Program-made: the position numbers and the translations under genes
Notes under the pieces: model-generated
Seen by the model: the letters and a program-made list of their open reading frames with translations, nothing else
What the model was told of the DNA's origin: nothing
Databases searched by the model: none
NCBI GenBank assembly: GCA_026004395.1
Contig: BPJB01000001.1
Coordinates: forward strand, 263,343-327,342
Direction of reading: 5' to 3'
DNA: 64,000 nt
Source: Patescibacteria group bacterium
GTDB taxonomy: Bacteria; Patescibacteriota; Microgenomatia; Levybacterales; UBA12049
Part shown: piece by piece, positions 9,113 through 64,000 of the stretch
Layout of the letters: each line of letters begins with the position of its first letter
How positions within the stretch are numbered: position 1 is the stretch's first letter

Positions 9113-9992
9113 TTATTTTACATTATTGTATGCTTGTGTATATGTTTCCGTCAGATACTTGTTTCTTAATAACTTTCCAATAAAAATAAGAATGATTGCT
9201 TTTGTGCGCAAGAGAAATTTTACATATTCGTACTCAAGACGTGATTTATGTTTTTTATAAAAATAAGGAAGATTTTTATAGATATTAACAATAGCAAATG
9301 ATCTGTTAGTGCTTCCCTGATGTTTGTGTTTGATGCTAATATCGGGGAAAAAGACACAGCGAAGTCCTAATTTTTTTATTCTATAACATAACTCCATATC
9401 CTCAGTGTACATCCAAATCTTCTCATCAAACTTCCCTACTTTCTCAAAAATATCTTTTTTGATCATAAAAAGCGCGCCTTTGATCCAATCGACATCTTTG
9501 ATTGTTTGTGGACTTTTATCGACTAATCCAAAGCGTTGAAGTCCGAGAATGAAAAGTGTAAAAGTAAACAGAGAATAAAATTTACCAGTTGAAGGCTGTA
9601 TGCTCCCATCTAAATTAAAAATTCTTCCTCCAAGTACACCAATCTCTGGATGAGATTTGAGATACTCTAACATTTTTGCAATACCTCTGTCTTCAACTGT
9701 GGTGTCATCATTAAGAAAAAGTAGGTACTGCCCGCGTGCATGCTTAGCGCCCAAATTGTTTCCCGCTCCAAATCCTGCATCGCTGTCGTTGGCAATAACA
9801 AAGAAGTTTTTATATTTTTTCACTTCTTGTTTAAGAATCTCCACTGAGTTATCTTCTGAAAAATTGTCTACGATTAGATATTCAAATTTTCCTTCATTGA
9901 ATTCCGTTTGATAATACTTCCACAAGAGATGCCATACAGTTTACAGCTTGGTGAGGTTTTTTGTGATTTATAGAGATGATCGAGAGTTCCAT
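9113..9992 (-). CDS. GT2 glycosyltransferase; true start at 9992 with frameshift near 9925
   Basis: MELSIISINHKK at 9992 in another frame; VDNFSED, GFGAGNN, FLNDDT, DEKIWMYTEDMELC. Confidence 0.85.
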
Positions 9993-49834: not shown

Positions 49835-50867
49835 ACCATTCGTCTTCAATTGCTGAAACATATCCGTAGAATCCATCTTTACCTTCAAATATATATATTG
49901 GGATTAGATATTGCTGTTTTTCACTACCTAAATAGTATCCTAAAAAGACATTTTTGATAACTATTTCATTAGATGTACCATAATAAGCAGCAATTGATCC
50001 TTTACCCGATTGTAGTTCTTTGAAAGCCTGCTCTACTAATTTAAGAGGATAGGTTGCGCTTTGATTACTAATAGTTTGATGATAAAACTGTCCTTCTACT
50101 ATTTCACCTCTTGAATCTGTTCCACCAATTAGAAAGTACATGGTTGAGAAAGGAGGCTTAGGATAGAATATTGGCATTCGATCAATATTTTTTTGAAAAA
50201 AATCTACTCTGATTAATTGTGTAGTAGAAAGGCTGGTAGCAGGAAAAAGAGTTGAGTTTTGAAGTGTTAGAAGTTGAGTTGTTGTTTTGGAAAGATCAAT
50301 GTCTTCTGGTAAAAGATCCATTGATTTAAGTGTTGATTCCGCTAAGTTTATTGCTTCTTGTGGAGTAATCGTATTTCCTTTGAAAAGGAAAGGTGTTCGC
50401 AGATAATCAGAGGTAATTGAAAAATCGCTAGAAACAATATTAAAAGTAATTTTCCTTTTAAAGATAGAAGAATCTCTCCAAGAATAGACAGTATCAGAAA
50501 TTATTTTTTCATCTGCAGTGAAATTAATTTTTTGAGCACGTAATCTGGTAATTTCAAGATTAAGTAGGTTTGGTTGTTTGGGAATAATTGCATATACTTT
50601 CGCCATGTTCGGGAAATATCCGAGATTGCCGCTAACAGTATCAATAGTATAGGTGAATTTGTTTGATACAACACTTTTGGGGAGAGACACGCGAGGTAAT
50701 TTTCCAAAAGCAACATTTGGAGGTGTAGGCGGTTTTGGGAAAAATACTTTATAAAGCGATATTCCTCCACGGATTAAAAATAGAATGACAAGAATTCCTC
50801 CGATGAGTATAGCACTCCATTTAAAGGTATTTTTAACAAGTTGAGTAGCTTTATATAACGTGAGCAT
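49803..50867 (-). CDS. Hypothetical membrane-anchored exported protein
   Basis: TM then PPTPP.VAFGKLP; C-terminal YPLK..EQAF.EL..G, LGYY, YLIPIYIF.G. Confidence 0.75.
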   Translation of the reverse strand: MLTLYKATQLVKNTFKWSAILIGGILVILFLIRGGISLYKVFFPKPPTPPNVAFGKLPRVSLPKSVVSNKFTYTIDTVSGNLGYFPNMAKVYAIIPKQPNLLNLEITRLRAQKINFTADEKIISDTVYSWRDSSIFKRKITFNIVSSDFSITSDYLRTPFLFKGNTITPQEAINLAESTLKSMDLLPEDIDLSKTTTQLLTLQNSTLFPATSLSTTQLIRVDFFQKNIDRMPIFYPKPPFSTMYFLIGGTDSRGEIVEGQFYHQTISNQSATYPLKLVEQAFKELQSGKGSIAAYYGTSNEIVIKNVFLGYYLGSEKQQYLIPIYIFEGKDGFYGYVSAIEDEWFSDDKTQTLE

Positions 50868-50912
50868 ATATTGAGTATAAGTAACAGTTGATGTAGAATG
50901 CAAGGTAAGTAT

Positions 50913-52310
50913 ATGACTTTTGCAAATGCAAGAACACGTATAGCCCCCTCTCCTACTGGAGAAGATATTCATATAGGTAATCTTTATACAGCACTTATCA
51001 ATTTCGCTGTTGCTAAAAAATATAAAGGTTCATTTATTGTCAGAATTGAGGATACTGATAGAGAGAGATACAAGGAAGGAGCAGAGGGAAAAATACTCTC
51101 CTCGTTAAAAGCATATGGTCTTGACTATGATGAGGGTCCTGATAAAGGAGGTCCTTTTGGACCCTATCGTCAGTCAGAGCGTCTTAATCTTTACCAACAA
51201 TATGCCAAAGAGCTTGTACAAAAAGGAGCCGCCTATTACTGTTTTTGTTCGAAACAGCGACTTGAAGAATTAAGAAGAGAGCAGATAAAGAAGAAAGAGA
51301 TGCCACGATATGATAAATATTGTCTATATCATGTAAAGAATGCACAAAGTAGGATTGAAGCAGGAGAATCTTATGTGATACGGCTAAATGTGCAATCTGG
51401 AAGAACAATAAGTTTTAAAGATGTTATTCGTGGAGAAATAAAGATTGAATCTGAACAGATTGATGACCAGATCCTCTTAAAATCTGACGGTTTTCCTACA
51501 TATCATCTTGGGGTAGTTGTAGATGATCATCTTATGAAGATAAGCCATGTTATTCGCGCAGAGGAATGGATCTCCTCAACACCCAAACATATTCTTCTCT
51601 ATGAAGCTTTTGGATGGGAGATGCCTATTTTTGCGCATTTACCCATATTGAGAAATCCAGATAGAAGCAAACTTTCAAAAAGGAAAAATCCAGTGTGGGC
51701 ATCATGGTATTTAGAGCAAGGTTATCTTCCTGAGGCAGTATTAAATTTTCTTGCTTTGATGGGTTGGAGTCATCCAGAAGGTAAAGAGATATTTACGTTG
51801 AATGAATTTATCCAAACATTTGAGTTGGAGGATGTTAAGTCTGTTGGACCCATTTTTGATATTGTAAAACTCACTTGGATGAATCAACAGTATATACAAA
51901 ATTTGGGTGATGAAGAGTTAATCCAAAGGTTAAAAAAGTTTTTATCACAATCGAATATAAGCGATGCTTTACTGCGAAAGCTACTTCCTTTGACAAAAAC
52001 CCGCATGGAGACTCTTAGAGATTTTTATAAACTCACTTCTCATTTTTTTATTGAGCCAAATGTTAAAGCGCGCTCAGACAAAGAAAAAGTTATTGCTGAA
52101 GATCTCAAAGCTGCACTGACAAATGTTGATTTGTGGACAACAGACAATATACTCTTAGCTCTAAAAGAGATTCTTAAAAAGCACCAGATAAGAATGCCAA
52201 TCATCTATTATATTTTTACAGGAGAGGAGAAAGGACTTCCTCTTCCAGAATCACTTGAGATTCTTGGAAGAGAAAAAACCCTTCTACGGCTTGAGAGGTT
52301 TATAAAATGA
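50913..52310 (+). CDS. gltX: Glutamyl-tRNA synthetase
   Basis: RIAPSPTG..HIGN, RIEDTD, YRQSER, DGFPTYH, KLSKR. Confidence 0.96.
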   Translation: MTFANARTRIAPSPTGEDIHIGNLYTALINFAVAKKYKGSFIVRIEDTDRERYKEGAEGKILSSLKAYGLDYDEGPDKGGPFGPYRQSERLNLYQQYAKELVQKGAAYYCFCSKQRLEELRREQIKKKEMPRYDKYCLYHVKNAQSRIEAGESYVIRLNVQSGRTISFKDVIRGEIKIESEQIDDQILLKSDGFPTYHLGVVVDDHLMKISHVIRAEEWISSTPKHILLYEAFGWEMPIFAHLPILRNPDRSKLSKRKNPVWASWYLEQGYLPEAVLNFLALMGWSHPEGKEIFTLNEFIQTFELEDVKSVGPIFDIVKLTWMNQQYIQNLGDEELIQRLKKFLSQSNISDALLRKLLPLTKTRMETLRDFYKLTSHFFIEPNVKARSDKEKVIAEDLKAALTNVDLWTTDNILLALKEILKKHQIRMPIIYYIFTGEEKGLPLPESLEILGREKTLLRLERFIK

Positions 52311-52909
52311 TAGATTTTTTTGCTAAATTTATTTCATTCATTTTTAATCCTTATTTTCTTCTTCTTCCCATACCTTATCTTCTTGTAGTGAGAGAAACAG
52401 GTGATCCTATTTATGCGCTAAAATGGACTTTCCTTTCTCTTTTCTTTGTTTTTGTGGTTATACTTTTTGTACTCTACGCAATTCGTAAAGGATACTTTTC
52501 CGATCTTGATGTCTCAAAAAGAGAACAGAGATTTCTTTGGTTTCTTTTTGTTGGGATTGTTGGAGTATTTTATCTTTTATCATTAATTTTTTTTGAAGGT
52601 CCTGTTGTACTTTGGATAGTTGCAGCTGGTATTCTATTTAGTGTTGTTGTATTTTCTATACTTAATTTACGAATAAAGGCAAGTTTACATGTTGCAGCAA
52701 TTTCTTCTTTGATATTTGCGATGAGTATTCTTTATGGTGGAGTATTTTTGTTATTATTATTTTTGATTCCACTAATTGGTTGGTCTCGTATTAGAATCAA
52801 GCGACATACATTATATGAAACGATTGTCGGAGCTATAACAGGGATCGCAATTACTTTACTTTTTTACATAATTTTTAAAGTAATGATGGGAATATCGGTA
52901 TCTTTATGA
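52307..52909 (+). CDS. PAP2-like multi-TM membrane protein
   Basis: KASLH, WSRI.IKRHT..E...G motifs; next to dgkA. Confidence 0.7.
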   Translation: MIDFFAKFISFIFNPYFLLLPIPYLLVVRETGDPIYALKWTFLSLFFVFVVILFVLYAIRKGYFSDLDVSKREQRFLWFLFVGIVGVFYLLSLIFFEGPVVLWIVAAGILFSVVVFSILNLRIKASLHVAAISSLIFAMSILYGGVFLLLLFLIPLIGWSRIRIKRHTLYETIVGAITGIAITLLFYIIFKVMMGISVSL

Positions 52910-53277
52910 TTAAACACAGGACTCTTATCAATTCATTTCATTATGCAATTCAAGGAATAGGTTATGCATTAAAAGAAGATCAGAATTTGCGTATTCATTT
53001 CCTTGTTGCACTTTGTGTGATTGCTGCCAGTATCTATTTCAAAGTCAATGCATTTGAAATGGGAATCTTGGGAATTATGATTTTACTCGTCATTGCAACA
53101 GAAATGATTAACACAGCGATTGAAAATATGGTTGATCTAATTACAAAAGAATATCGAATGGAAGCAAAAATTGCAAAAGACGTAGCATCAGGAATGGTTT
53201 TAATCACATCTTTGGGGGCTGCAATAGTTGGATTGCTTATTTTCCTCCCTTATATCATTCGTTATTTCTTCAGTTAA
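52906..53277 (+). CDS. dgkA: Diacylglycerol/undecaprenol kinase
   Basis: SF.YA.QG, NLRIH, EMINTAIE..VD, AKIAKDVASG.V. Confidence 0.9.
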   Translation: MIKHRTLINSFHYAIQGIGYALKEDQNLRIHFLVALCVIAASIYFKVNAFEMGILGIMILLVIATEMINTAIENMVDLITKEYRMEAKIAKDVASGMVLITSLGAAIVGLLIFLPYIIRYFFS

Positions 53278-53327
53278 TGCACTAACTAGCAATTTCAGCC
53301 TGATTTCGATAAAATTAATAATACTTT

Positions 53328-53401
53328 TGCCGGATCGTCTAATGGTAGGACAACGGACTCTGAATCCGTTTATCTTGGTTCGAATCCAGGTCCGGCAGCC
53401 A
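53328..53401 (+). tRNA. tRNA-Gln (anticodon CTG), CCA encoded
   Basis: Acceptor TGCCGGA/TCCGGCA-G-CCA, D-loop TAATGGTA, anticodon arm ACGGA-CTCTGAA-TCCGT, T-loop GGTTCGAATCC. Confidence 0.95.
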
Positions 53402-54054
53402 AGTAGGTGATGATTTTTGCAAAAAGTGATAATTAACCTTAGTTATTTTATAAATTGAATGAGGGTGGTATTAAGGATTTTAAACGTGTATGATATATTT
53501 TTACGTTTATTGACGATTGGACAGAGTCCATCAAGACGTCATAACAACATTATTCAAAAATCAAAAATATTATTGTTCAGATTTTAGTCCATCTATTCCT
53601 ATGAATATTTTAAGATCAGCAAAGAACTAAGAGGTAGGATCATCGGATAGATCTTTTTTGGAAAAGAGGGCATTGTACGTGTTTCAGGTGTAGGAATTGT
53701 AAGTGAGGTTAGACGAGTAATTTCTGAGTATCCTTGGCAAGGTTTATAGCTCTTGCTGTTTCTAAGAGTAATCCAGTTTCTAAAAGAAATTCATGTCGAT
53801 TGTGTTTTTCTTTCATAATGGAAGTGGTTTCTCTACTTTGATTTAAAACAATTTAAATAGCAATCAATGTCAAAGTATTTTTATCAACAAATTTATTTTT
53901 TTGCAATAGCAGTAGATATTAGACGGAATAGATTTCTAGTTCATTAATTATCTAACAATCGAATATACAACATTTACTGTATTAAGATAAAAATTTAATT
54001 AAGAAAGAGAGTGATTTTATTAGTGTTACTCGAAGAAATAAGGAGGTCTAAGAA

Positions 54055-54921
54055 TTAATAGAGCTTGTTCATACCTGTAATATCACCGGTATTAAGATCG
54101 CGTTTTTTTGTTTCACCTTCTGTGGCATATCCATACATAGTCTCATCTGTGCAACTTGAGTTATAAAGATCAATTAGTCCTACGCTGTGTCCTAATTCAT
54201 GCGTTGCAATATTCTCAAAATCCATTTTCCCTGCTTCACCACTTGCAGACCATTGATATGCTGTATTATAGATTTGATCCCATTCAACGATTCTTCTTTT
54301 GGATACCAAACCACTAAAATATCCCCACACAATAGTTACTGCGATTGTATTGGGATCATCAATTGGTCCAAAGTATACCTCATTGAGACCATCAGGAGCA
54401 GTTGTATCAGCAACAAGGACATTGGTTGTTAAAGAACCATCTCCCAGCACATTCAAACCTCCGTTACCTAACACTCCATCAGTCGCATCCTCCCATTTGC
54501 TTATATCTTGTGAGAGATTAGACAATACAAAATTATCTAGCAATCCGCTACCTGTGGCATTTAGCAGCCATGGCTCAACATTTTTCCATTTAGCGCCTTT
54601 AGCAAAAAATCCATAACAAGAGGTTTTACTATTTGTTAGTTTTGATTTGTGCAAGAAAGCTTGTTTAAATTTTGCTTTTTTGTGAATTATCGCATATCCT
54701 TCAACATCAAGTCCGCTTACTGGATCTTTAGCCTTGGGGATTTTATAGAGATCATCAGCAATTTTGACTGCTGTATCTGGAAGCCTAAAGGTTTGCTGCC
54801 AGTTAGTTGGCGATAAGGATGGTAATGTAGTAACTTGAGAAAGTTTCACAAAAGCAAAACTTTTTCCTACGATTAAGAGAAGCAATACTATAGCTAAATA
54901 AAGATAGGCAGGAGAACGCAT
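54055..54921 (-). CDS. Secreted matrixin-like (metzincin) zinc metalloprotease
   Basis: Signal peptide; HELGHSVGLID zinc motif; Met-turn ETMYGY; DI.G...LY end. Confidence 0.8.
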   Translation of the reverse strand: MRSPAYLYLAIVLLLLIVGKSFAFVKLSQVTTLPSLSPTNWQQTFRLPDTAVKIADDLYKIPKAKDPVSGLDVEGYAIIHKKAKFKQAFLHKSKLTNSKTSCYGFFAKGAKWKNVEPWLLNATGSGLLDNFVLSNLSQDISKWEDATDGVLGNGGLNVLGDGSLTTNVLVADTTAPDGLNEVYFGPIDDPNTIAVTIVWGYFSGLVSKRRIVEWDQIYNTAYQWSASGEAGKMDFENIATHELGHSVGLIDLYNSSCTDETMYGYATEGETKKRDLNTGDITGMNKLY

Positions 54922-55013
54922 CAATAATAGTAAAGTAACAAAGAAAAAACTTAAAGTCAAGATCAGAGAATAGGCTTTGAAGGTTAGTATTTATTGCTAT
55001 AGATTTACCTCTG

Positions 55014-55580
55014 TTATTGAGTATCAAAAATATTTTTTTCTATTAGATGTTCTCGAACTATTTGTTTTCTTATCTCTGCTTTTGGTAAAAGATCTTCAAT
55101 GACTTTTGCATAACGAATGGGATTGTGTATTAAATATAACTCCTCATATTTATTTCCTTTTTCATCATAAAGACTAATCGTGCCAAAGTTAAATATTTTT
55201 CCAAGCAGAGATTGTTTCACTTCAACAAGTGCAATCTTTTCTAAAAGGTATTTTTCTTCAGTCTTAAAGATTAATCCTTTCCTGTGATAAATAATAGTTT
55301 TCGTAATCTCATAATATTCATTCAACCATTGTAAGATAATGATCACAGTCAGTAGAGTTTTCAGGATTACTAATATAAGAAAAAGCGGGATATTAAATAT
55401 CCTTATCCCCATTTCTGCTAGTCTAGTTTCATCAAATTCAGATAACAACGCATGGAAGATGATGATTAATATGGCTGCGATTATTTCAAGCAATATTAAT
55501 TTTAAGAGTAGTATTGAGATACTTAAGCGGATGTTAATGTGTGTAACTTGTATTGTTCCATTATTTCTTTTATTAGTCAT
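55014..55580 (-). CDS. Membrane protein with bacterial PH (bPH_2-like) domain
   Basis: Two TMs then W..EYYEIT...I.HRKGLI...V.VKQSLLGKIFNFGTI. Confidence 0.75.
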   Translation of the reverse strand: MTNKRNNGTIQVTHINIRLSISILLLKLILLEIIAAILIIIFHALLSEFDETRLAEMGIRIFNIPLFLILVILKTLLTVIIILQWLNEYYEITKTIIYHRKGLIFKTEEKYLLEKIALVEVKQSLLGKIFNFGTISLYDEKGNKYEELYLIHNPIRYAKVIEDLLPKAEIRKQIVREHLIEKNIFDTQ

Positions 55581-55964
55581 CAAGTACATTATACAACCTC
55601 TTTATAATTCGTAGCATATTAATGTATTATTTTGATCTACTTGACAAAGAATGACACTTGTTGTTATAAGTTCGCTAGACAAAAAAACAAATCCAGTCTA
55701 ATGGGTGAGTTGCAGGATTGCAATTGTATTTTTTAGTTATACAACAGTAAGTTTTATTCTCTGAAAGTATATAAAAATTTTCTTCTAAGCTTTTAAATTA
55801 AAACTTGGTGATAATCATTGAGTTATTAATACAATTACAACTTTTGTTAGAAGTATTATTTAGGTCATTAAATTTAACTATCTTTATGAGTATTTTGGAA
55901 GTAACTGATATTCTAAAAATTAACACTATCACTATTTAGAATAGTACTTTGGATTAAAATACCT

Positions 55965-56156
55965 ATGGGAACATTAAGATTGTCACTGATACGCAGAAGA
56001 AGAAAAAGAAAAGCAGAATTAGCGAAACTGCGTCGGCTTTTTCTAAAAGCTAAAACTCAGGAAGAGAAAGATAAAGTGTTTGAGAAAGTATTTAGAATAG
56101 CTCCTCATTTGAGCAAAGAAGATTTCTTGTTATCTGTTAAACAATCTCAAAAATAA
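55965..56156 (+). CDS. Small basic protein (DUF6800-like)
   Basis: IRRRRKRKAELAKLR....KAKT.EEKDK..EK..RIAP. Confidence 0.65.
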   Translation: MGTLRLSLIRRRRKRKAELAKLRRLFLKAKTQEEKDKVFEKVFRIAPHLSKEDFLLSVKQSQK

Positions 56157-56203
56157 AGCTACATTTTAAATTGTAATTTGTTAAATAAATTAAAATTCCT
56201 AGT

Positions 56204-57061
56204 CTATCTTCTTTTTTCTACTTTTTTGCTATCTTCAGGTTCTTTTTGGTAGGGAAAAGGTATATAGTGAACAGATGGGCGTCTCACAGCAGCTTGAGGA
56301 TATTCATCCATTAGATCATAAATTTCGCGGGGTAAACCTACTTCAACAGGTAATCCTAGTTTTTTTGCCTCTTCATATTCAATTGGATAATCATGTGTCC
56401 ATTGCCCTCTTGTTAATGCATTAGCTATCAATTTTGCTTTTTCTTTTAGTACTCCATTTTCCATTAAGATGGAGATTACTGTTTCTTTTACTTGTTTAAT
56501 AGCTTTTTCTGCAATATTTGCCAGTATTAAAGTTTTATCATCCAGATTTTTCGTGGGTTTTTTCTTAATAGTATCGAGTATAGAAGCGGCGGGATATTCA
56601 CCGAGCTGAGGATCAAGAGGACCCAAAACAGCATTTTCATCCATGACAATTCTATCTCCTGCAAGTGCAATTAATGTTCCTCCTGACATAGCATAATGAG
56701 GAATGAAAACTGTTACAGGAGCTTTGTGTCTGACTAAAGCTCGCGCAATTTGTTCTGCTGCCAATACCAAACCTCCCGGTGTATGAATTATAAAATCAAT
56801 GGGTACATTTTTGGGTGTAAGACGTATTGCTCGTAATACACTTTCAGAATCTTCAATATCAATGAAACGAGAGAAAGGGATTCCTAAGAAAGAAAATATT
56901 TCTTGTCTGTGAATTAAAGCAATGACTCTGCTTTTTCTTTTTCTTTGCAGAGTATCAATTATTTTGTCTCTTCGCGCCTCAAGCCATTTGCGCTGAAGAA
57001 TCGGACTAAGAGTTGCAAAAATAAATAACAACCACAAAATATCAAATACTGTAATTTGCAT
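56204..57061 (-). CDS. Membrane-anchored ClpP/crotonase-fold serine protease (SDH_sah / S49-like)
   Basis: IHRQE, IDIEDSE.VLRAI, HTPGG.V.AA, YAMSGGTLIAL, LGPLDPQ, WTHDYPI. Confidence 0.85.
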   Translation of the reverse strand: MQITVFDILWLLFIFATLSPILQRKWLEARRDKIIDTLQRKRKSRVIALIHRQEIFSFLGIPFSRFIDIEDSESVLRAIRLTPKNVPIDFIIHTPGGLVLAAEQIARALVRHKAPVTVFIPHYAMSGGTLIALAGDRIVMDENAVLGPLDPQLGEYPAASILDTIKKKPTKNLDDKTLILANIAEKAIKQVKETVISILMENGVLKEKAKLIANALTRGQWTHDYPIEYEEAKKLGLPVEVGLPREIYDLMDEYPQAAVRRPSVHYIPFPYQKEPEDSKKVEKRR

Positions 57062-57081
57062 AATATGATTATATACCTATT

Positions 57082-57097
57082 GGTGATGAACATCAAA
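57082..57097. promoter_or_regulatory. CRP/FNR-like box upstream of the SDH_sah protease
   Basis: Minus strand TTGAT-GTTC-ATCAC, just upstream of TATAAT (57068-57073). Confidence 0.5.
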
Positions 57098-57104
57098 AAT
57101 TATA

Positions 57105-57245
57105 TTATTTATTTTTCTTCTGTATCTGTTGCCAAAGCCAGATACCCAACAGTATTGCATCTATTAAAATAACTATCCAGAAAAGTGATACGAATATTCC
57201 AAATCCTCCCCAGTTCATCATACCACCATTCCAATATCCCATCAT
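57105..57245 (-). CDS. 46-aa single-TM protein (missed by ORF track)
   Basis: MMGYWNGGMMNWGGFGIFVSLFWIVILIDAILLGIWLWQQIQKKNK*; GGGAGGTGA SD; start abuts upstream stop. Confidence 0.75.
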   Translation of the reverse strand: MMGYWNGGMMNWGGFGIFVSLFWIVILIDAILLGIWLWQQIQKKNK

Positions 57246-58055
57246 TTAAGATTCACCTCCCTTCTTAATTTTTTCTTGCTCAATTTGCTCTGCAATTTTT
57301 TTGCTTTTCAAAAAAACTGTGTTAAGAGGTATATTGAGTTCAGTAGCAAATTGTCCAAGCACCATTTTTTGTAAATGGGTTGGTAAGTGAGATTTCATTT
57401 TCTGAAATATTTCTCTATGCCCTCCCAAGATAATAAAATGTATATTTTTGTCTTTTACAAAATCATCGATTACTTCAGCAATAAATTGAAGATGGCGATG
57501 AAGATGATCCTCGATATGACGAAAAATTTTATCACTTCTTCCATAGTAGTGTTCTTCATTTGCTCTTACTTTTTGCGGAACATTTCCATTAAATACGTCT
57601 TTATGTTCTTCTATCTCTCCCAAATGAACAGTAAAAATCCGTGCTTTTTTATGATCAACAAGGAGCACTAGATATTTTGTATATGTATCTAAAGCTTCGA
57701 GTATTGGTTTAAGATATGGAGCGTGTAAGATAACGCAAAGTGGCGGAAGATAAAACTCAAAATCAAGTACTTCGAATAACTTTTCTCCGGCTGAGAAAAA
57801 AACAATGCTTCTTTTGCCTCGACTGTCATATTGTTCTTTAAGAAAACTTATGATGCGATCAATATCTTTTTTAAATGCTTTTTGTTCATCTTTGGTAAGA
57901 GACTGGTGGATAAGAGAATGGAATTGGGAAACAACAACATTTGTATGAAATGTTTTCTTCTCAGCAGTGCCTAAATAAACTGAAAGAACTGGATAGGGTA
58001 AATTCATCAGTTTTTGTAATTGTTTAATTTTTACAGTTATGTTTGTCTTAGTCAT
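57246..58055 (-). CDS. Bacterial aeRF1/Pelota-family protein (baeRF, Balon-like) lacking GGQ
   Basis: PVLSVYL N-domain; APYLKP; LVLLVD.KKARIF...GEIEE M-domain; IILGG; loop has no GGQ. Confidence 0.75.
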   Translation of the reverse strand: MTKTNITVKIKQLQKLMNLPYPVLSVYLGTAEKKTFHTNVVVSQFHSLIHQSLTKDEQKAFKKDIDRIISFLKEQYDSRGKRSIVFFSAGEKLFEVLDFEFYLPPLCVILHAPYLKPILEALDTYTKYLVLLVDHKKARIFTVHLGEIEEHKDVFNGNVPQKVRANEEHYYGRSDKIFRHIEDHLHRHLQFIAEVIDDFVKDKNIHFIILGGHREIFQKMKSHLPTHLQKMVLGQFATELNIPLNTVFLKSKKIAEQIEQEKIKKGGES

Positions 58056-59134
58056 ATGACTCCATTCACGCTTTTTAGTTTTCTTGTCTCTATAATGGGA
58101 GTTATTTGTACAGACTTAAGTTTATGAAGATAAATTCTTCCATTTCTTTTTACTCCTGAGATAAGTTTTTGATCCCAAATATTCTTACCTAGTGGTACAA
58201 CAATTCTTCCTCCTTCCTTAAGTTGTTGAATCCAGGTTTGTGGAATATGGGGAACAGCCGCATCTACAACAATCGCATCAAAGGGTGCGAACTGCGTAAG
58301 TCCGTCAAGACCATTACCAGTAATTACATGCACATTTGTATAGCCTAATTTAGTTAGAGTATTTGTTGCCTTTTTAGCAAGTGCTGGGAGAATCTCTATT
58401 GTATAAACTTCCTTGGCAAGATGTGATAAAACAGCGCTCATGTATCCTGTTCCTGTTCCTATATCTAATACTTTTTCTGTTCCTTTTAGTTTTAGCGCTT
58501 GCACCATCAAACCGATAAGAGAGGGCTGGCTTATTACTTGACCAGCGCGTGTGGGTAGAGTGATATCCAGATACGCTTCATCTTTATATTTTGACGGTAC
58601 GAAAAGATGTCGTGGTACAGTCTCCAGAGCATGCAAAACTCTCTTATCCACTACACCTAAAGGTTTTATATACTCTTCAACTAAAATTTTTCGCAACTGT
58701 TCATCAAGTTTAGGTCGCTTTCTAATAGTCTTTTTTTTTGCTGATTCTTCAATCTTTCCCCATTTTTGAGGAGTAGTAAAGTAATCAGGATGAGTGCGTA
58801 TTGATGCGTGAGAATAGTATTCACTATCACTTTTGAGATGTTTGCCTCTATATTCTTCTAATTTTTTATCTATTCGATCAAAAACTTCTTCAATGAGAGC
58901 TTCAGGAGATTCCCATCCTTCACATCTAGCATATAGTGGTTTGTAAGGCAATCCCAGTAGGATATCACTATCATAAAATCCATTTCTTCTATGCATATTA
59001 ATATTAAATCGTAGCAAAACAGGATCTGTATTAGTAAAAGGAATGCGTTTTGCGATTTGTTTGACTCTTCTCTCGATAAGATGAAGCCATTTATCCGAGA
59101 GAGAACAATTTTTAGCAGTAATTGTGTAAATCAT
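58052..59134 (-). CDS. pcm: HPF/RaiA-like domain fused to protein-L-isoaspartate O-methyltransferase
   Basis: N-term MIYTITAKN.SLS....IERRV...LPYKPLYAR...ALIEEVFDRIDKKLEEYR; C-term VPRHLFVP, ISQP, VLDIGTGTGY, APFDAI, QLKEGGRIVVP. Confidence 0.8.
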   Translation of the reverse strand: MIYTITAKNCSLSDKWLHLIERRVKQIAKRIPFTNTDPVLLRFNINMHRRNGFYDSDILLGLPYKPLYARCEGWESPEALIEEVFDRIDKKLEEYRGKHLKSDSEYYSHASIRTHPDYFTTPQKWGKIEESAKKKTIRKRPKLDEQLRKILVEEYIKPLGVVDKRVLHALETVPRHLFVPSKYKDEAYLDITLPTRAGQVISQPSLIGLMVQALKLKGTEKVLDIGTGTGYMSAVLSHLAKEVYTIEILPALAKKATNTLTKLGYTNVHVITGNGLDGLTQFAPFDAIVVDAAVPHIPQTWIQQLKEGGRIVVPLGKNIWDQKLISGVKRNGRIYLHKLKSVQITPIIETRKLKSVNGVI

Positions 59135-59174
59135 AGATGACAAAAACAAAATACTTCAACTGAGATTTTCTTGC

Positions 59175-59213
59175 AAGGATGATAATCACTAAATTTTTGT
59201 GATAATAGTTACA
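59175..59213. promoter_or_regulatory. Tandem CRP-type boxes between HPF-pcm and the crp gene
   Basis: TGTGA-TAATAG-TTACA (59198-59213) in AT-rich flanks; weaker AGTGA-TTATCA-TCCTT on minus (59175-59190); TTGCAA-N17-TATTTT minus-strand promoter. Confidence 0.65.
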
Positions 59214-59254
59214 AATTTGAGCATTTGGACAGGAATAAATGTTAAAATACATCT

Positions 59255-59914
59255 ATGTCTTTTTCTTCTTCAACTTCTCTTAAAGTAGAGAGTTTTTTCA
59301 CACAGTATAAATTTATAAGATATAAAAAAGATGAGATCCTTTTTCGCGCAGAAGATACACCACCGGGAGTTTATTATTTAAAAAGTGGTTTTGTCAAGCA
59401 GTATATTGTTTCTAAAGAAGGTAGCGAGTTAATACTTCACATATATGGTCCAGGATCTTTTTTTCCAATGATGTGGGTAATTGGAGAGGTACCCAATGAA
59501 TATTTCTATACTGCAATGACAGCTTGCACAACATTTCGAGCGCCAACGGATAAAACAAGACAATTTTTGGTGGAGAATCCTGATGTGGTTTTTGATTTGA
59601 CAAAAAGATTGTATTTGGGAGTTGATGGATTGCTAAAGCGAATCGAAGATCTCTCTCTTGGAACTGCTTATACACAAGTAATCTCTGTACTGCTTTACCT
59701 GGCGCAACATTTTGGTAAGAGATGGGGGAAGAGCATAGTGATACCTTATAAATTCACCCATCAGGATATTTCAGCAATTATGGGAACTGTTCGTGAGACA
59801 GCTACCAGAGAATTAGATAAATTGGTGAGAGAAAAACTTATTCTTTACGAAAAACATTCTATCATTATTCCAGACATAGAGAGACTTCGAAAAAAGCACA
59901 CCTTTAGAAGATAA
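59255..59914 (+). CDS. Crp/Fnr family transcriptional regulator
   Basis: Beta-roll (YYLKSGFVKQY..SKEG.E) and HTH FTHQDISAIMGTVRETATRELDKL. Confidence 0.92.
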   Translation: MSFSSSTSLKVESFFTQYKFIRYKKDEILFRAEDTPPGVYYLKSGFVKQYIVSKEGSELILHIYGPGSFFPMMWVIGEVPNEYFYTAMTACTTFRAPTDKTRQFLVENPDVVFDLTKRLYLGVDGLLKRIEDLSLGTAYTQVISVLLYLAQHFGKRWGKSIVIPYKFTHQDISAIMGTVRETATRELDKLVREKLILYEKHSIIIPDIERLRKKHTFRR

Positions 59915-59925
59915 TTCTACTATTC

Positions 59926-59992
59926 TGTGATATCTGTTACATTTTTTCTGTGATAAATATCATTGTAATCTGTTCCTTTTTCCTTTTATAGT
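59926..59992 (+). promoter_or_regulatory. Tandem CRP-type boxes and -10 upstream of hsp20
   Basis: TGTGA-TATCTG-TTACA (59926-59941), TGTGA-TAAATA-TCATT (59949-59964), TATAGT (59987-59992). Confidence 0.7.
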
Positions 59993-60024
59993 GGTTTCGT
60001 GGTAGAAGAAAGGAGGTGAGAGGT

Positions 60025-60465
60025 ATGGCAGATAGTTTATTACCACGAAGGCTATGGAGTCTTCCAACAATTACTTTTCCCTCACTTCTTGAAGATGTGT
60101 TTGAAGAGGTAGAAGAGTTGGTTCCGGCAACCATCTGGCCTTCGACTACTTATCTACAAGGGTTAAGTATATCAGAAGATGATAAAAATGTATATGTAGA
60201 AGCAGCAGTTCCAGGTGTTGATCCCAAAGAAATTGAAGTAACATATGAAAATGGTGTCTTGACCATCCGTGGTGAAAAAAAGGAAGAAGAAAAAGGAAAG
60301 ACATTTAGAAGAAGAGCAACAAGATCTTTCTTCTATCGGATATCACCTGGAGACGTTGATCCTAATAAAGAGCCAGAGGCAGTATGCAAAAACGGTGTAA
60401 TGACTGTTACTTTTGCCAAAGTGCCAGAGGCCAAACCCAAAAAAATTGCAGTCAAAACTGCATAA
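60025..60465 (+). CDS. Hsp20/alpha-crystallin small heat shock protein
   Basis: SEDDKNVYVEAAVPGV....IEV...GVLTIRGE, A..KNGVMTVT.AK; AAGGAGGTGA SD. Confidence 0.92.
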   Translation: MADSLLPRRLWSLPTITFPSLLEDVFEEVEELVPATIWPSTTYLQGLSISEDDKNVYVEAAVPGVDPKEIEVTYENGVLTIRGEKKEEEKGKTFRRRATRSFFYRISPGDVDPNKEPEAVCKNGVMTVTFAKVPEAKPKKIAVKTA

Positions 60466-60472
60466 CTGAATA

Positions 60473-60526
60473 CATGCTGGCAGACAGAATATGTTTGCAA
60501 TGCAATCGAGGCAGTCTGCCAGCATG
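60473..60526. repeat. 13-bp perfect inverted repeat downstream of hsp20
   Basis: CATGCTGGCAGAC-N28-GTCTGCCAGCATG. Confidence 0.75.
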
Positions 60527-60567
60527 AAGAATTTATCTATAGCGATGTATTGTGTTAATAAAAGTAT

Positions 60568-60967
60568 ATGGAAAAGATATATATTCATACAACAAAAAAT
60601 AAAGAAGTTGTTGATGTTACGGATCATATTAATAAAATACTTGCTGGGAAAAAGAGAGAGGGCATCTGCCATTTATTTCTCCCACATTCAACTGCGGGAT
60701 TAACAACAGCAATCGATAATAATAACTATGAACTTGATCTTATAGATGCTTTTAATATAGCACTTCCGCATTTTAAAGAATTTGGACAAAGATATACACA
60801 GAGTCATATTTACAACCGTCTTCCTGATCATATAATCTCATCATTTCTAGGTACATCGTTATCAGTTCCAGTAATTGGTAAGAAAAGTGCATTGAGTGAA
60901 TTTCAGTGTTGTACTTGTTGAGTTGAATGGACCGCGTAAGCGTATGTTATGGATAGAATATGAGTAA
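60568..60967 (+). CDS. YjbQ/UPF0047 family protein (frameshift near 60905)
   Basis: EVVDVTD, GICHLFLPHSTAGLT, PDHI.SS.LG.S...PV; tail VVLVELNGPRKR in another frame to TAA 60965-60967. Confidence 0.75.
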
Positions 60968-60976
60968 GGAGAAAAT

Positions 60977-62620
60977 ATGTATTTCAAGAATCGCCAAGAA
61001 GCAGGAAAACTGCTGGCACAAAAGTTAAAAAAATATAAAGGAAAAAATGTCGTTGTTTATGCTCTTCCCCGAGGAGGAGTCGTAACGGCTGTGGAGATAG
61101 CAAAGTACCTTAATGCTCCACTAGATCTTATTATCACTAGGAAAATTGGACACCCCTACAATCCGGAGTATGCGATTGCTGCAGTAGCTGAAAATGGCGA
61201 CCTCATCGGTTCAGAAAGAGAGCTTGAGTTGGTTGATAAAGAATGGCTGAGAAAAGAGATTGAGCATCAAAGATTGGAAGTAAAACGCAGGAGAGAAAAA
61301 TATCTTGCAGGAAGAGAAGAGATAACTGCTGAGGGCAAAACTGCAATTCTTGTTGATGATGGAGTTGCAACAGGACTTACCCTGCGTGCAGGTATTAGGG
61401 AGCTTTTACAGCGACATCCACAAAAAATTGTTGTTGCTGTTCCTGTTATTCCTATTTCTACAGCAGAGATCATTAAAAAAGAAGCAGAAGAGCTAGTAGC
61501 TCTTACTATTCCATCAGATAATGAGTTCTTAGGTTCAGTCGGAGCATACTATGAGGACTTCTCACCAGTAGAAGATGAAGAGGTGATAAAAATACTCAAA
61601 GCATATGATAGACAAAGAAAGGAAAAAGCAAAACAGATTTCATCGCCAATAGTAGCTGAGCAGATTGATCCGATACTTTTTTCTTTTTCTACTCATAAAT
61701 ATATGGTTGAAAAATTAAAGGAAATACCTAATCTTAGTATTGGGAAATTTGATCTAGAACGTTTTCCCAATAGAGAACTACATCTTATACTACATACTCA
61801 TGTGGCAGAGAGAGAGTGTATAGTTCTTGGATCTATTGCACCAGCCGAGGAGAATCTTGTTTCTTTTCTTCTTTTATGTCATACACTAAAAAAAGAAGAT
61901 GCTCATAATATAACTGCAGTGCTTCCTTATCTTGCTTACTCACGTCAAGATAAGAAAGAATACCAACGAAGCTATGCTACAGCATTGATAGGTGACTTGC
62001 TTAAGGCTTCAGGAGTAGATCAAGTTATTACTGTTGATGTTCATAGTTTGCATATAAAACAACTTTATCCAATTCCTCTGATCTCACTCTCACCAGCCAA
62101 AATTTTGGCAGAAGAAGTGCGAAAACTGAACATCAAAGATATAACAATTGTTGCTCCCGATGAAGGTGCAATCAAGCGTGCAGAGGCAGTCAGGAGAGAG
62201 GCAGGGATTAAAAATGAACTTGCATATGTAATCAAAAAACGAACGGCAAATGGTCTAAAGCTGTTAGAACTTCATGGAAAACTCAGTAAGACTGTGGCCA
62301 TCGTTGATGATATTTTGGATACTGGGAAAACTCTTCTTGCCTGCTGTAAAAAACTCCAAGAAAAAGGAGTACAAAACATTTATATTATGGTAACTCATGG
62401 CCTTTTTAGTGGAAAAGAATGGGAAGAACTCTGGAATTATGGAGTAAAACGAATTTATTGTACAGATACACTTCCATTGCCACGACAGGTATCTTCAAAA
62501 AATATTACTGTTCTCTCGATTATCCCCCTTCTCGTTGAAGAATTAAAAGAGGAATATGCAGGAGTATTTACTATTGAAAAAAAAGATAGATATAGTTTTT
62601 TTGATTATGACGAACCATGA
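60977..62620 (+). CDS. Phosphoribosyltransferase fused to ribose-phosphate pyrophosphokinase
   Basis: N-term F.NR.EAG..LA, LPRGG, RKIG.P, VDDGVATG; C-term FPN.E, PYLAYSRQDK, DVHS, APDEGA, VDDILDTGKT, THGLFS, TDT. Confidence 0.85.
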   Translation: MYFKNRQEAGKLLAQKLKKYKGKNVVVYALPRGGVVTAVEIAKYLNAPLDLIITRKIGHPYNPEYAIAAVAENGDLIGSERELELVDKEWLRKEIEHQRLEVKRRREKYLAGREEITAEGKTAILVDDGVATGLTLRAGIRELLQRHPQKIVVAVPVIPISTAEIIKKEAEELVALTIPSDNEFLGSVGAYYEDFSPVEDEEVIKILKAYDRQRKEKAKQISSPIVAEQIDPILFSFSTHKYMVEKLKEIPNLSIGKFDLERFPNRELHLILHTHVAERECIVLGSIAPAEENLVSFLLLCHTLKKEDAHNITAVLPYLAYSRQDKKEYQRSYATALIGDLLKASGVDQVITVDVHSLHIKQLYPIPLISLSPAKILAEEVRKLNIKDITIVAPDEGAIKRAEAVRREAGIKNELAYVIKKRTANGLKLLELHGKLSKTVAIVDDILDTGKTLLACCKKLQEKGVQNIYIMVTHGLFSGKEWEELWNYGVKRIYCTDTLPLPRQVSSKNITVLSIIPLLVEELKEEYAGVFTIEKKDRYSFFDYDEP

Positions 62621-63252
62621 ATGAAATAAAAAAATTAATACAACTACCAGTCAACAATGAAACACTTGAAGGTATGCTAGTAATTCCGTCTCAGGCTAAA
62701 GGCATGGTGCTCTTTGCACATGGAAGCGGAAGCAGTAGATTATCACCACGTAATAATTTTGTTGCAGCAGTTTTACAGAGAGCAGGCATAGGAACATTAT
62801 TAATAGATTTACTCACAGAAGATGAAGACAAGGTTTATGAAACTCGCTTTGATATCGATCTTTTAACCAGGAGGCTGATTGATATTATTAATTGGCTTCA
62901 AAAACAACCAGAAACAAAAGACTTAACCATAGGTATCTTTGGTGCAAGTACAGGTGCTGCAGCTGCTCTTATGGCTGCCGCTCATTTAAAAAACAACATT
63001 CGTGCTCTTGTTTCACGAGGAGGAAGACCAGATTTAGCAATGGAAGTTCTTGAAAAAGTAGTATCTCCAACATTACTTATAGTAGGAGGAAATGATTATG
63101 GTGTTATCGAGCTTAATGAGCGTGCATATAAACGTCTTCAGTGTGAGAAAAAATTAGAGATAATACCAGGCGCAACACATCTTTTTGAAGAGAAAGGAGC
63201 ATTAGAAAAAGTCGCAAAACTTGCCGCTAAATGGTTTGGTAGGTATTTATGA
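62617..63252 (+). CDS. Alpha/beta hydrolase (dienelactone hydrolase-like)
   Basis: FAHGSGSSRLSPRN, GASTG nucleophile elbow, SRGGRPDLA, PGATHLFEE. Confidence 0.88.
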   Translation: MNEIKKLIQLPVNNETLEGMLVIPSQAKGMVLFAHGSGSSRLSPRNNFVAAVLQRAGIGTLLIDLLTEDEDKVYETRFDIDLLTRRLIDIINWLQKQPETKDLTIGIFGASTGAAAALMAAAHLKNNIRALVSRGGRPDLAMEVLEKVVSPTLLIVGGNDYGVIELNERAYKRLQCEKKLEIIPGATHLFEEKGALEKVAKLAAKWFGRYL

Positions 63253-64000
63253 CAGCCAAGAAATTAAAAATAGCTATGATTGCTCCAATTACAGAACGTG
63301 TCCCTCCAAAAAAATATGGAGGGATTGAGCGCGTAGTTCATGCCCTAACAGAAGAACTAGTTAGGAGAGGTCACTCTGTAACCCTTTTTGCAACGGGTGA
63401 TAGTATTACTTCAGCAAAACTTGAATATGTTTATCCTCGTGCTCTAAGGGAAGCAAAAATAAAAGAATTACATGGATTTCATGAATGGACTATTTATCAC
63501 ATCCTTTCAGCTTATATGCAACAGCAAAAGTTCGATATCATTCATGATCACAATAGTCTTTGGGGATTGCTTCCAGCACAGTTTGCAAAGACACCAACGG
63601 TGATAACACTTCATGGTCCGATTACTCCTAACAATCGCAGATTGTATGAGAAAGTTACTACTCCATATCTTGTAGCAATCTCTAAGTCCCAATCTCAACA
63701 CGTTCCAAGTATTAAAATTACAGATACCATATATAATGGGCTTCCTTTAGAGAACCATCCCTTTGGTAAAACACATAAAGGATATTTGCTTTTTGTAGGT
63801 AGAATATCTATGGAAAAGGGAACACATTATGCGATTGACGTAGCCTCCGATCTTCATCTTCCACTTATTATTGCAGCTAAGCTAGATGAAGTGGACAGAG
63901 AGTATTTTAAGGAATACATTGAGCCAAGAATTAATGGTGAGCAAATAAGATGGATTGGAGAGGTAGATGAGGTAGAGCGTAATAAATTGATGAGTGGTGC
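63249..64000 (+). CDS. GT4 family glycosyltransferase (partial, runs off window)
   Basis: MTAKKLKIAMIAP..ERVPPKKYGGIERVV..L.EELV.RGH.VTLFA.GDS...LLFVGRISMEKG; open to window end. Confidence 0.88.
   Translation, partial: MTAKKLKIAMIAPITERVPPKKYGGIERVVHALTEELVRRGHSVTLFATGDSITSAKLEYVYPRALREAKIKELHGFHEWTIYHILSAYMQQQKFDIIHDHNSLWGLLPAQFAKTPTVITLHGPITPNNRRLYEKVTTPYLVAISKSQSQHVPSIKITDTIYNGLPLENHPFGKTHKGYLLFVGRISMEKGTHYAIDVASDLHLPLIIAAKLDEVDREYFKEYIEPRINGEQIRWIGEVDEVERNKLMSG

Follow-up and report, generated by a model that had tools for sequence, protein, structure and literature searches.

As set out in passages of PMC5309233, the DosR regulon of Mycobacterium tuberculosis takes in Rv0079, Rv0569-Rv0574c, Rv2028c-Rv2032 and Rv2623-Rv2631, with Rv0571c as a putative phosphoribosyltransferase (PRTase) and Rv2631 as RtcB. 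Passages of two other papers give Rv2030c a PRT domain and membership of the erythromycin-esterase superfamily (PMC4410610), and name tandem regulator boxes as a hallmark of DevR promoters (PMC3177182). Cmr (Rv1675c), a CRP/FNR-family factor of the tuberculosis complex, has targets that overlap the DosR regulon, according to excerpts of PMC4705688. Balon provides another point of reference: in the passages of Helena-Bueno et al. (Nature 2024, PMC10901736), its genes typically lie in stress operons, most often beside RaiA and also with Hsp20 and RtcB, and Balon-type genes occupy varied stress operons in many phyla; the clustering of Balon, RaiA, Hsp20 and RtcB is, in those passages, already published. 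Here we analyze the 64,000 nucleotides of Patescibacteria DNA presented above (the window), which correspond to C1:263343-327342 of a single-contig genome (label G000; 1,084,101 bases, 35.6% G+C). Near its right end, a gene for a Crp/Fnr-family regulator stands in an island of genes for HPF-PIMT (an HPF, or RaiA, domain fused to PIMT), a Balon-like baeRF protein, Hsp20 and other stress-type families.

How Patescibacteria regulate their genes has hardly been studied, and it is an open question by what means these host-dependent cells persist when they do not grow. RaiA was required in the one transposon-sequencing (Tn-seq) study of a Patescibacteria organism, as passages of a perspective report (PMC11665869). 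A full-text literature search on a Crp regulon or ribosome hibernation in Patescibacteria found no description of the present system, and the passages of PMC10901736 hold no occurrence of Patescibacteria or baeRF and name no Crp regulator or cis-element.

We propose that the local Crp, through class II activation from bidirectional pairs of boxes, probably switches on a programme of ribosome hibernation and repair, and that the island is likely switched on as one unit. A dimer of this Crp would bind each box; the box would stand in for a -35 element and recruit RNA polymerase as in class II activation, and a single pair would fire two promoters, arranged back to back with about 106 bp between their starts. 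The pair 59175/59198 would drive HPF-PIMT, baeRF and a small transmembrane (TM) peptide leftwards and crp rightwards, and the pair 59926/59949 would drive Hsp20 and then, by read-through, the genes from YjbQ to RtcB. At growth arrest the programme would park and repair ribosomes and proteins; by family, the genes of the island point to hibernation (HPF-PIMT and the Balon-like protein), chaperoning by Hsp20, proteolysis, the salvage of nucleotides and, through archease-RtcB, the repair of RNA. Window positions are used throughout; L-numbers denote fetched loci, of which L032 and L041 belong to the window's own genome and the others named here to relatives.

Crp-type boxes and promoter geometry

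The preliminary description had placed CRP-type boxes at three promoters, and five boxes are indeed present there. To score them we used a weight matrix trained solely on sites of relatives (30, picked by rule), with the consensus TGTGAT-N4-ATCACA. In a scan of the 1.08-Mb genome with this relatives-only matrix, the boxes at 59949, 57082, 59926 and 59198 were the top four intergenic matches, with overall ranks of 2, 4, 6 and 7. Four of the five intergenic sites of at least 12.5 bits lie at this locus (rough binomial P ~1e-10). The same enrichment was seen in 23 loci, where matches to TGTGA-N6-TCACA with at most one mismatch number 9 in 5,563 nt of cluster-associated promoter DNA versus 1 in 19,368 nt of other promoter DNA (Fisher P 1e-5, or 8e-5 when the own genome is left out). 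A larger sample was anchored on Crp genes: it comprises 80 loci, 75 of them further independent loci (1.02 Mb), and is biased to a Crp subclade paired with a gene for a 117-residue protein. In these 75 loci, sites of at least 10 bits number 23 at -500 to 0 and 95 at +500 to +2000 relative to Crp, and about 4 per 500-nt bin elsewhere.

Counting loose matches gives no such signal. The pattern GTGAT-N4-ATCAC with up to two mismatches occurs 30 times in the window, compared with 31.6 expected; the own genome holds no perfect copy of the strict consensus, and sites there with at most one mismatch number 5 in intergenic and 22 in coding DNA, an intergenic density only ~1.8-fold higher. Judged by these scores, the window boxes exceed chance, and their signal is one of position and quality, not of number.

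The boxes are typically paired across a 7-nt spacer, or 23 bp from centre to centre. By our reading of the sequences, such pairs are present in the own genome, which holds two (59926/59949 and 59175/59198), and in eight relatives, one of the pairs being weak; L015 has two boxes 30 nt apart. Of 26 cases in relatives, 10 have exactly 41.5 nt between the proximal box centre and the start codon of the flanking gene, and 20 have 41.5-45.5 nt. These genes show no evident Shine-Dalgarno sequence, implying that their messages have little or no leader.

The same regularity appears in the candidate -10 elements. On 28 of the 58 left sides, and on 23 of the 58 on the right, the hexamer TAnnnT begins exactly 21 nt past the outer edge of the box, with a background of ~2 per offset. 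When the pairs were de-duplicated to 52 clusters, the hexamer stood at offset 21 on 45 of 104 sides, including both sides of 13 pairs; control offsets had a mean of 3.6 and a maximum of 12. Because a -10 hexamer occupies -12 to -7, the 21-nt offset would put the box centre at -41.5, that is, 29.5 nt before the -10. A box at -41.5 is in the class II activator position of CRP and FNR, and evident -35 hexamers are not seen at the promoters of this type. We therefore read each pair, from its layout, as two putative back-to-back class II promoters with one box apiece. In the window, this layout is matched exactly on the HPF-PIMT side, where TATTTT stands at offset 21 and the leader is ~6-7 nt long.

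A separate observation concerns two genomes of one family, which share ~150 nt of conserved sequence after the box pair and ahead of baeRF (L024:~9250-9550 and L025:~9330-9630). This stretch has no Rfam family match; it may be a structured leader RNA.

The regulator, its regulon and competing readings

The regulator is, as first described, a one-component protein of the Crp/Fnr family (PF00027, PF13545). Among solved structures, the closest to its family profile are NtcA (E 1e-31) and E. coli CRP (E 2e-29). Its recognition helix reads R180-E181-x3-R185. The first two residues do not vary across 12 sequences, and the window Crp also has R185; in E. coli CRP, R180, E181 and R185 contact DNA. An Fnr-type iron-sulfur oxygen sensor is excluded for the predicted protein, because it has a single cysteine (position 91) and the Crp alignment has no conserved Cys column. 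Its effector is very probably not cyclic AMP (cAMP): by eye, the aligned cassette region reads FFP...PN-x-YFFEA, without the phosphate-binding Arg of the cAMP-type cassette (Arg-Ser/Thr), and the genome, 99.95% complete by marker genes, has no match to the cyclase families PF00211 and CYTH (PF01928), class I cyclases not having been searched. Cyclic di-GMP (c-di-GMP) may be the effector, a candidate that we keep because the genome encodes one GGDEF protein.

In a quick tree, the window Crp and the Hsp20-linked Crps of L015, L017 and L024 form a group inside a large box-associated clade, with a support of 85 in the Shimodaira-Hasegawa-like approximate likelihood ratio test (SH-aLRT). Named relatives of its gene are found in Levy-, Roizman- and Daviesbacteria and, further off, in Saccharibacteria. 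Two oddities were noticed among the homologous loci. Among L044-L117, many contigs with this Patescibacteria-type Crp locus bear the title 'uncultured Gammaproteobacteria', which looks wrong, and the Crp homologue beside Hsp20 at L021:3186-3824 (+), a tblastn match over residues 10-219, is not one open frame and is maybe broken or mis-assembled.

That a lack of conservation elsewhere would refute the regulon had been laid down beforehand. What we found is that baeRF homologues are patchy (5 of 40 relatives and 18 of 400 other genomes of the class), and that the kit recurs around them. Of 22 baeRF-anchored loci from other genomes, 10 have Crp within 10 kb and 11 have an adjacent HPF gene, and YjbQ, hydrolase, PRT/PRS (PRTase and phosphoribosyl pyrophosphate, or PRPP, synthetase), protease, CapA-like, archease, RtcB and Hsp20 genes recur in varying order. 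Other families of the class have the kit near baeRF and Crp, and Crp-anchored loci from across Patescibacteria have it too. L015, from another family, has nearly the whole set together with Usp, a LigT-like phosphoesterase and a Gmad2/Germane protein; in L060, a single plus-strand run after a tandem box comprises PRT, hydrolase, archease, RtcB, HPF, baeRF and TM peptide. Taken as a whole, the earlier reading of the locus as a Crp-controlled dormancy regulon is supported by this comparative evidence.

Box pairs were found in 42 of 98 loci. The gene family most often downstream of them encodes the 117-residue protein, an all-beta protein without a Pfam family (31 loci), followed by cupin (12), baeRF (8), Crp (7), bPH_2 (7), HPF, PEP-utilising enzyme, PNPOx-like and bPH_3 (5 each), Usp and short-chain dehydrogenase (SDR; 4 each) and Hsp20 (3). 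By these family assignments, the targets of the pairs are of stress type. Within the own genome the predicted regulon appears to be local: among intergenic sites of at least 8.5 bits elsewhere, none has a convincing class II layout, and there is one weak candidate, at C1:162607. Near-consensus sites by carbonic-anhydrase-like, FKBP, PaaX-like and bPH genes were considered as regulon members and set aside, being without class II layout. Separately, bPH_2 genes occur near Crp in 13 of 80 loci, and a bPH_2 paralog at C1:769000-769518 has a 10.2-bit box ~260 nt upstream.

The 117-residue protein is also the commonest Crp neighbour, in 50 of 80 loci (for example, L010:8037-8441 (-) and L020:8155-8508 (-)), as well as the commonest first gene after a pair. 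Its AlphaFold (AF2) model has a predicted local distance difference test score (pLDDT) of 88; the protein has no Pfam match, and the model has no Foldseek match at E <= 0.001. Its best VIA-wide fold matches are weak, with Z 5.9 to a LigD phosphoesterase domain and Z 5.5 to a CYTH protein, values too low to point beyond a shared barrel, and hhalign gave a probability of 1.7% for a relationship to the genome's own LigD_N protein.

The geometry bears directly on whether Crp activates or represses. If the boxes were operators and Crp acted chiefly as a repressor, growing cells would keep the island silent, and loss or gain of an effector would release it. Some sites are placed in this way. The protease box overlaps the -35 and spacer of a good sigma-70-type core promoter, TTGATG-17-TATAAT, which is apparently leaderless and whose -10 starts 8 nt after the box; this box would be either a repression site or merely a -35 element, and its geometry is not class II. 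Thus, of the three promoter sites first described, the pairs at HPF-PIMT/crp and at Hsp20 stand, and the protease box looks like a core-promoter overlap rather than an activator site. Likewise, 7-9 nt separate the crp-nearest box of L015, L017 and L021 from the TATAAT-like hexamer that follows it, a repressor-like distance that suggests repression or autoregulation at some sites. Set against this, the dominant geometry has the -10 at 21 nt on both sides (45 of 104, compared with the control mean of 3.6), these promoters have no evident -35 hexamer, and -41.5 is the textbook activator position. We consider repression as the main mode unlikely. Both sets of observations fit a mixed mode in which most promoters are activated and some crp promoters are autorepressed.

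Class II activation by the local Crp also has to be weighed against other readers of the boxes, and against there being no regulon at all. The genome has two Crp-family proteins, and the second, C1:346337-347029 (-), ~19 kb past the window end (L041), could read the boxes alone or jointly with the first. Just upstream of this paralog, at C1:347050, is a 9.3-bit near-palindrome with TTACA-type halves, and the strongest island boxes also have one TTACA-type half. Across 75 loci, however, the boxes track orthologues of the local Crp, which lies inside the box-associated clade, whereas the paralog lies outside it and, in the alignment, has Leu in place of the third DNA-contact Arg; a role for it is hardly to be expected. 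It is very unlikely, too, that the neighbourhood is shared merely by inheritance or transfer of a stress island, with boxes that serve crp autoregulation only. Gene order does vary between genomes, gaps and a hairpin part Hsp20 from the genes downstream, and Balon-type genes sit in varied stress operons of many phyla whatever the regulator, to go by the passages of PMC10901736. Nevertheless, in several families pairs immediately precede operons of Hsp20, HPF/baeRF and Usp and are not confined to the flanks of crp, and the L060 run downstream of one pair carries seven kit genes.

In addition to the protease box and the crp-nearest boxes of L015, L017 and L021, several observations count against activation of the whole island by Crp. 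The offset-21 hexamer is missing on 59 of 104 sides, and -41.5 is a position derived from -10-like hexamers, not from mapped starts. Within the window, box 59175 is weak, at only 7.2 bits; the Hsp20 promoter is one base off (TATAGT at offset 22 from the proximal box), and the crp side has ATAAAT at offset 21, which is not TAnnnT. The hairpin and a 102-nt gap after Hsp20, and a 55-nt gap before PRT-PRS, weigh on co-transcription of Hsp20 with the downstream genes. None of the 15 runs listed as holding this DNA (hot-spring, mat, subsurface and drinking-water metagenomes) is recorded as RNA. Hibernation genes are near Crp only in a minority of the Crp-anchored loci (baeRF in 12 of 80, HPF in 8 of 80), and the 117-residue family is absent from the own genome, though it is the commonest Crp partner elsewhere. 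The compared genomes are related and hence not independent, so that the statistics overstate the case. Finally, the Balon-like protein scores below the cut-offs of the NCBIfam Balon families (NF052289, 37 bits against 320; NF052288, 31 against 480; NF052287, 26 against 330) and is missing the Balon C-terminal domain, and its binding to ribosomes is a prediction from family resemblance.

Class II activation of a local hibernation and repair programme could be part of something wider, in which this Crp clade would be the master switch of a Patescibacteria-wide resting programme, with the island as its fullest cargo. A bidirectional class II module, flipped by a metabolite, would park ribosomes with the sole HPF and a minimal, two-domain Balon; HPF-PIMT would hold its repair methyltransferase on the hibernating ribosomes of this hot-spring organism and so mend isoaspartyl damage of ribosomal proteins on the spot, and RtcB-archease would re-ligate cleaved RNA on waking. 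We offer this extension tentatively, as a possibility about which we are doubtful. Isoaspartate reportedly occurs in E. coli ribosomal protein S11, to go by the title of a reference.

Genes and proteins of the island

Gene identities come from Pfam and NCBIfam profile searches. All ten genes named in the preliminary description are present at the positions given there, the 46-residue peptide being the one without a family match. The features are collected in the table below.

Coordinates of island genes, boxes and the Hsp20 hairpin (window positions)
Feature	Position	Strand	Evidence
SDH-type ClpP-fold serine protease, 285 residues	56204-57061	-	PF01972 400 bits; NF047768 413 bits (cut-off 250)
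Single box at protease promoter	57082-57097	.	13.0 bits
Gly/Met/Trp-rich single-TM peptide, 46 residues	57105-57245	-	no family match in Pfam/NCBIfam
Short Balon-like protein, baeRF_family10, aeRF1 fold, 269 residues	57246-58055	-	PF18854 82.9 bits (cut-off 27.1)
HPF(RaiA)-PIMT fusion, 360 residues	58052-59134	-	PF02482, NF001453, TIGR00080
Tandem boxes between divergent HPF-PIMT and crp	59175-59190 and 59198-59213	.	7.2 and 12.8 bits
Crp/Fnr-family regulator, 219 residues	59255-59914	+	PF00027 57.5 bits (cut-off 27.5); PF13545 51.1 bits (cut-off 27)
Tandem boxes upstream of Hsp20	59926-59941 and 59949-59964	.	12.9 and 13.3 bits; strongest 23-bp pair in genome
Hsp20/alpha-crystallin, 146 residues, AGGAGG ribosome-binding site	60025-60465	+	PF00011 57.3 bits
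Hairpin 3' of Hsp20 stop, perfect 13-bp stem, no clear T-run	60473-60526	+	-32.7 kcal/mol, z -2.5
YjbQ/UPF0047, 117 residues	60568-60921	+	PF01894 49.6 bits
Type I PRTase-PRPP synthetase fusion (PRT-PRS), 547 residues	60977-62620	+	PF00156, PF13793, PF14572; TIGR01251 258 bits
Alpha/beta hydrolase of dienelactone hydrolase (DLH) type, 211 residues	62617-63252	+	PF01738 32.9 bits
GT4 glycosyltransferase, 350 residues in genome	63249-64000 (true end at window-equivalent 64301)	+	PF00534 100 bits

The island is larger than the window reveals, since the plus-strand run continues past the window end (L032). There GT4 is followed by a PGA_cap/CapA-like protein (PF09587, 252 bits), archease (PF01951, 90 bits) and RtcB (PF01139, 564 bits), the last two being adjacent genes just beyond the window end, and by a 142-residue unknown. 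Along this run, each start either overlaps the preceding gene by 4 nt or follows it after no more than 9 nt, and the hydrolase start overlaps the PRT-PRS stop by 4 nt. The hairpin after Hsp20 is a possible attenuator or stabiliser. On the other side, the island is flanked by a bPH_2 membrane protein at 55014-55589 (-) and a 63-residue DUF6800 protein at 55965-56156 (+); beyond the operon, L032:5096-9340 (window-equivalent 67754-71998) encodes a MerR-PAS histidine kinase, an RRM-type RNA-binding protein, a protein with a LigD 3'-phosphoesterase domain and MutL. The window DNA was found again in hot-spring metagenome runs. An Rfam search of 50000-64000 and of eight relatives' loci returned only tRNAs and one S-adenosylmethionine (SAM) riboswitch elsewhere, and a consensus scan for promoters and terminators was not enriched (31 promoters versus 30.1 expected, 5 terminators versus 4.3), with the protease promoter among those listed.

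Several of these genes keep similar company in other genomes. The protease has homologues within the cluster of L015 and L019. Homologues of the TM peptide adjoin baeRF or Crp in L010, L020 and L022 and occur in 4 of 80 Crp-anchored loci. YjbQ is present in the cluster of 7 of the 22 baeRF-anchored loci, and the hydrolase is found also in L013, L015 (two copies), L019 and L023, with a fragment in L031.

The baeRF protein resembles Balon both in sequence profile and in predicted fold. A profile of 16 homologues matches Balon MSMEG_1130 (8v9j_z) with E 3.9e-11 over residues 24-235 of 375, P. urativorans Balon (8rd8_B) with E 2.7e-7 and archaeal aRF1 with E 2.7e-7. An AF2 model (pLDDT 85.5) has as its best PDB match in Foldseek the same 8v9j_z (E 2e-13; TM-score 0.72 by query length and 0.55 by target length), and scores 0.61 against Rv2629 (8v9k_z) and 0.60 against 8rd8_B, with eRF1/aRF1 chains lower. 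The parallel that had been drawn to Rv2629 as a Balon-family protein is borne out by this structural match. A motif check found neither GGQ nor NIKS in the 269 residues. Because of its length, its alignment to residues 24-235 of 375 and its scores far under the NCBIfam cut-offs, the protein is, on these comparisons, a two-domain (N + M) short form of Balon. Among relatives, baeRF proteins include still shorter forms of 135-177 residues and long forms of 427-429.

HPF-PIMT, whose start we read from the sequence as the ATG at 59134, is the sole HPF-family match in the own genome. Its HPF domain is marginal and divergent: PF02482 scores 25.3 bits against a cut-off of 23.7, and 23.1 bits with a longer TTG start. 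A profile of nine homologues matches E. coli HPF (6h4n_x) with E 1.2e-5, in two stretches split by an insertion. The PIMT part scores at equivalog level (NF001453, 205.4 bits versus 188; TIGR00080, 186 bits versus 159). The full-length fusion is rare, in that among the best 120 of 2,931 matches five clusters cover at least 97% of the query, the others being plain PIMTs save one 386-residue protein at 83% coverage. PIMT here occupies the place of the usual C-terminal domain of long HPF, and the database names of the five fusion clusters are PIMT only.

The N-terminal PRTase subfamily of PRT-PRS is elsewhere fused to DLH hydrolases (~420-450 residues) and to erythromycin esterases (655-897 residues). 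A 758-residue protein, P0123, holds in one chain the same PRTase domain, a PRPP synthetase and a DLH hydrolase, implying a functional tie between the neighbouring PRT-PRS and hydrolase genes of the window. The preliminary description had placed Rv0571c and Rv2030c in this subfamily and given Rv0571c a hydrolase domain. The PRTase annotations in the passages of PMC5309233 and PMC4410610 agree with the former, and the DLH and esterase fusions fit the architecture; the hydrolase domain of Rv0571c is absent from those passages.

Comparison with described systems

What the locus adds is a regulator, a predicted DNA site, a promoter architecture and a small set of target families whose conservation extends from Microgenomates to Saccharibacteria. 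Its value is mainly as a handle on regulation and dormancy in Patescibacteria, and it offers three unusual proteins for biochemistry: HPF-PIMT, the two-domain Balon and the PRTase-PRPP synthetase.

The class II CRP/FNR promoters of E. coli share with the island a two-domain regulator, the R-E-x3-R helix, the 16-bp TGTGA-N6-TCACA dyad and, judged by -10-like hexamers, the distance from box to -10. The present system differs in having no cAMP-type Arg, no Fnr Cys cluster and no PF00211/CYTH cyclase found. It differs, too, in its fixed pairs 23 bp apart, apparently for two divergent and often leaderless promoters, and in a regulon that appears local, not global. Cmr, in the passages of PMC4705688, is likewise a Crp-family protein linked to dormancy genes. 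It works beside DosR in a large genome, whereas the Crp described here is apparently the sole dedicated regulator of the island.

The Balon stress operons have the same RaiA/Hsp20/RtcB neighbourhood as the window, and the best PDB matches of the baeRF protein are Balon chains; they differ in the size of the protein, which is 269 residues here and 360-375 in the solved Balons.

The parallel with the DosR regulon holds at family level, and more widely than the preliminary description had claimed. As far as the passages cited at the outset go, it takes in Hsp20 (Rv2031c), an HPF-type protein (Rv0079), Balon (Rv2629), RtcB (Rv2631) and PRTase (Rv0571c and Rv2030c), and probably also the CapA-like protein. 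Usp extends the likeness in relatives of this genome. We take Rv0574c to be a relative of CapA/PGA_cap and Rv2630, presumably, to be an archease. Tandem boxes are a further likeness, being present here and, in the passages of PMC3177182, at DevR promoters. The differences lie in control and layout. DosR is a NarL-type response regulator with heme kinases (DosS/DosT), whereas the island has a one-component regulator of the Crp/Fnr type, and nothing points to hypoxia sensing; the kinase nearest to the island, the MerR-PAS histidine kinase, lies 3.8 kb past the window end, with no receiver gene seen next to it, no genome-wide search for a DosR-type protein having been made. The island is one block rather than the nine of M. 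tuberculosis, and its Balon has two domains, its HPF is fused to PIMT and its PRTase to PRPP synthetase. Overall, that a DosR-type kit would have been assembled independently under a regulator of a different kind argues that the kit is a functional unit.

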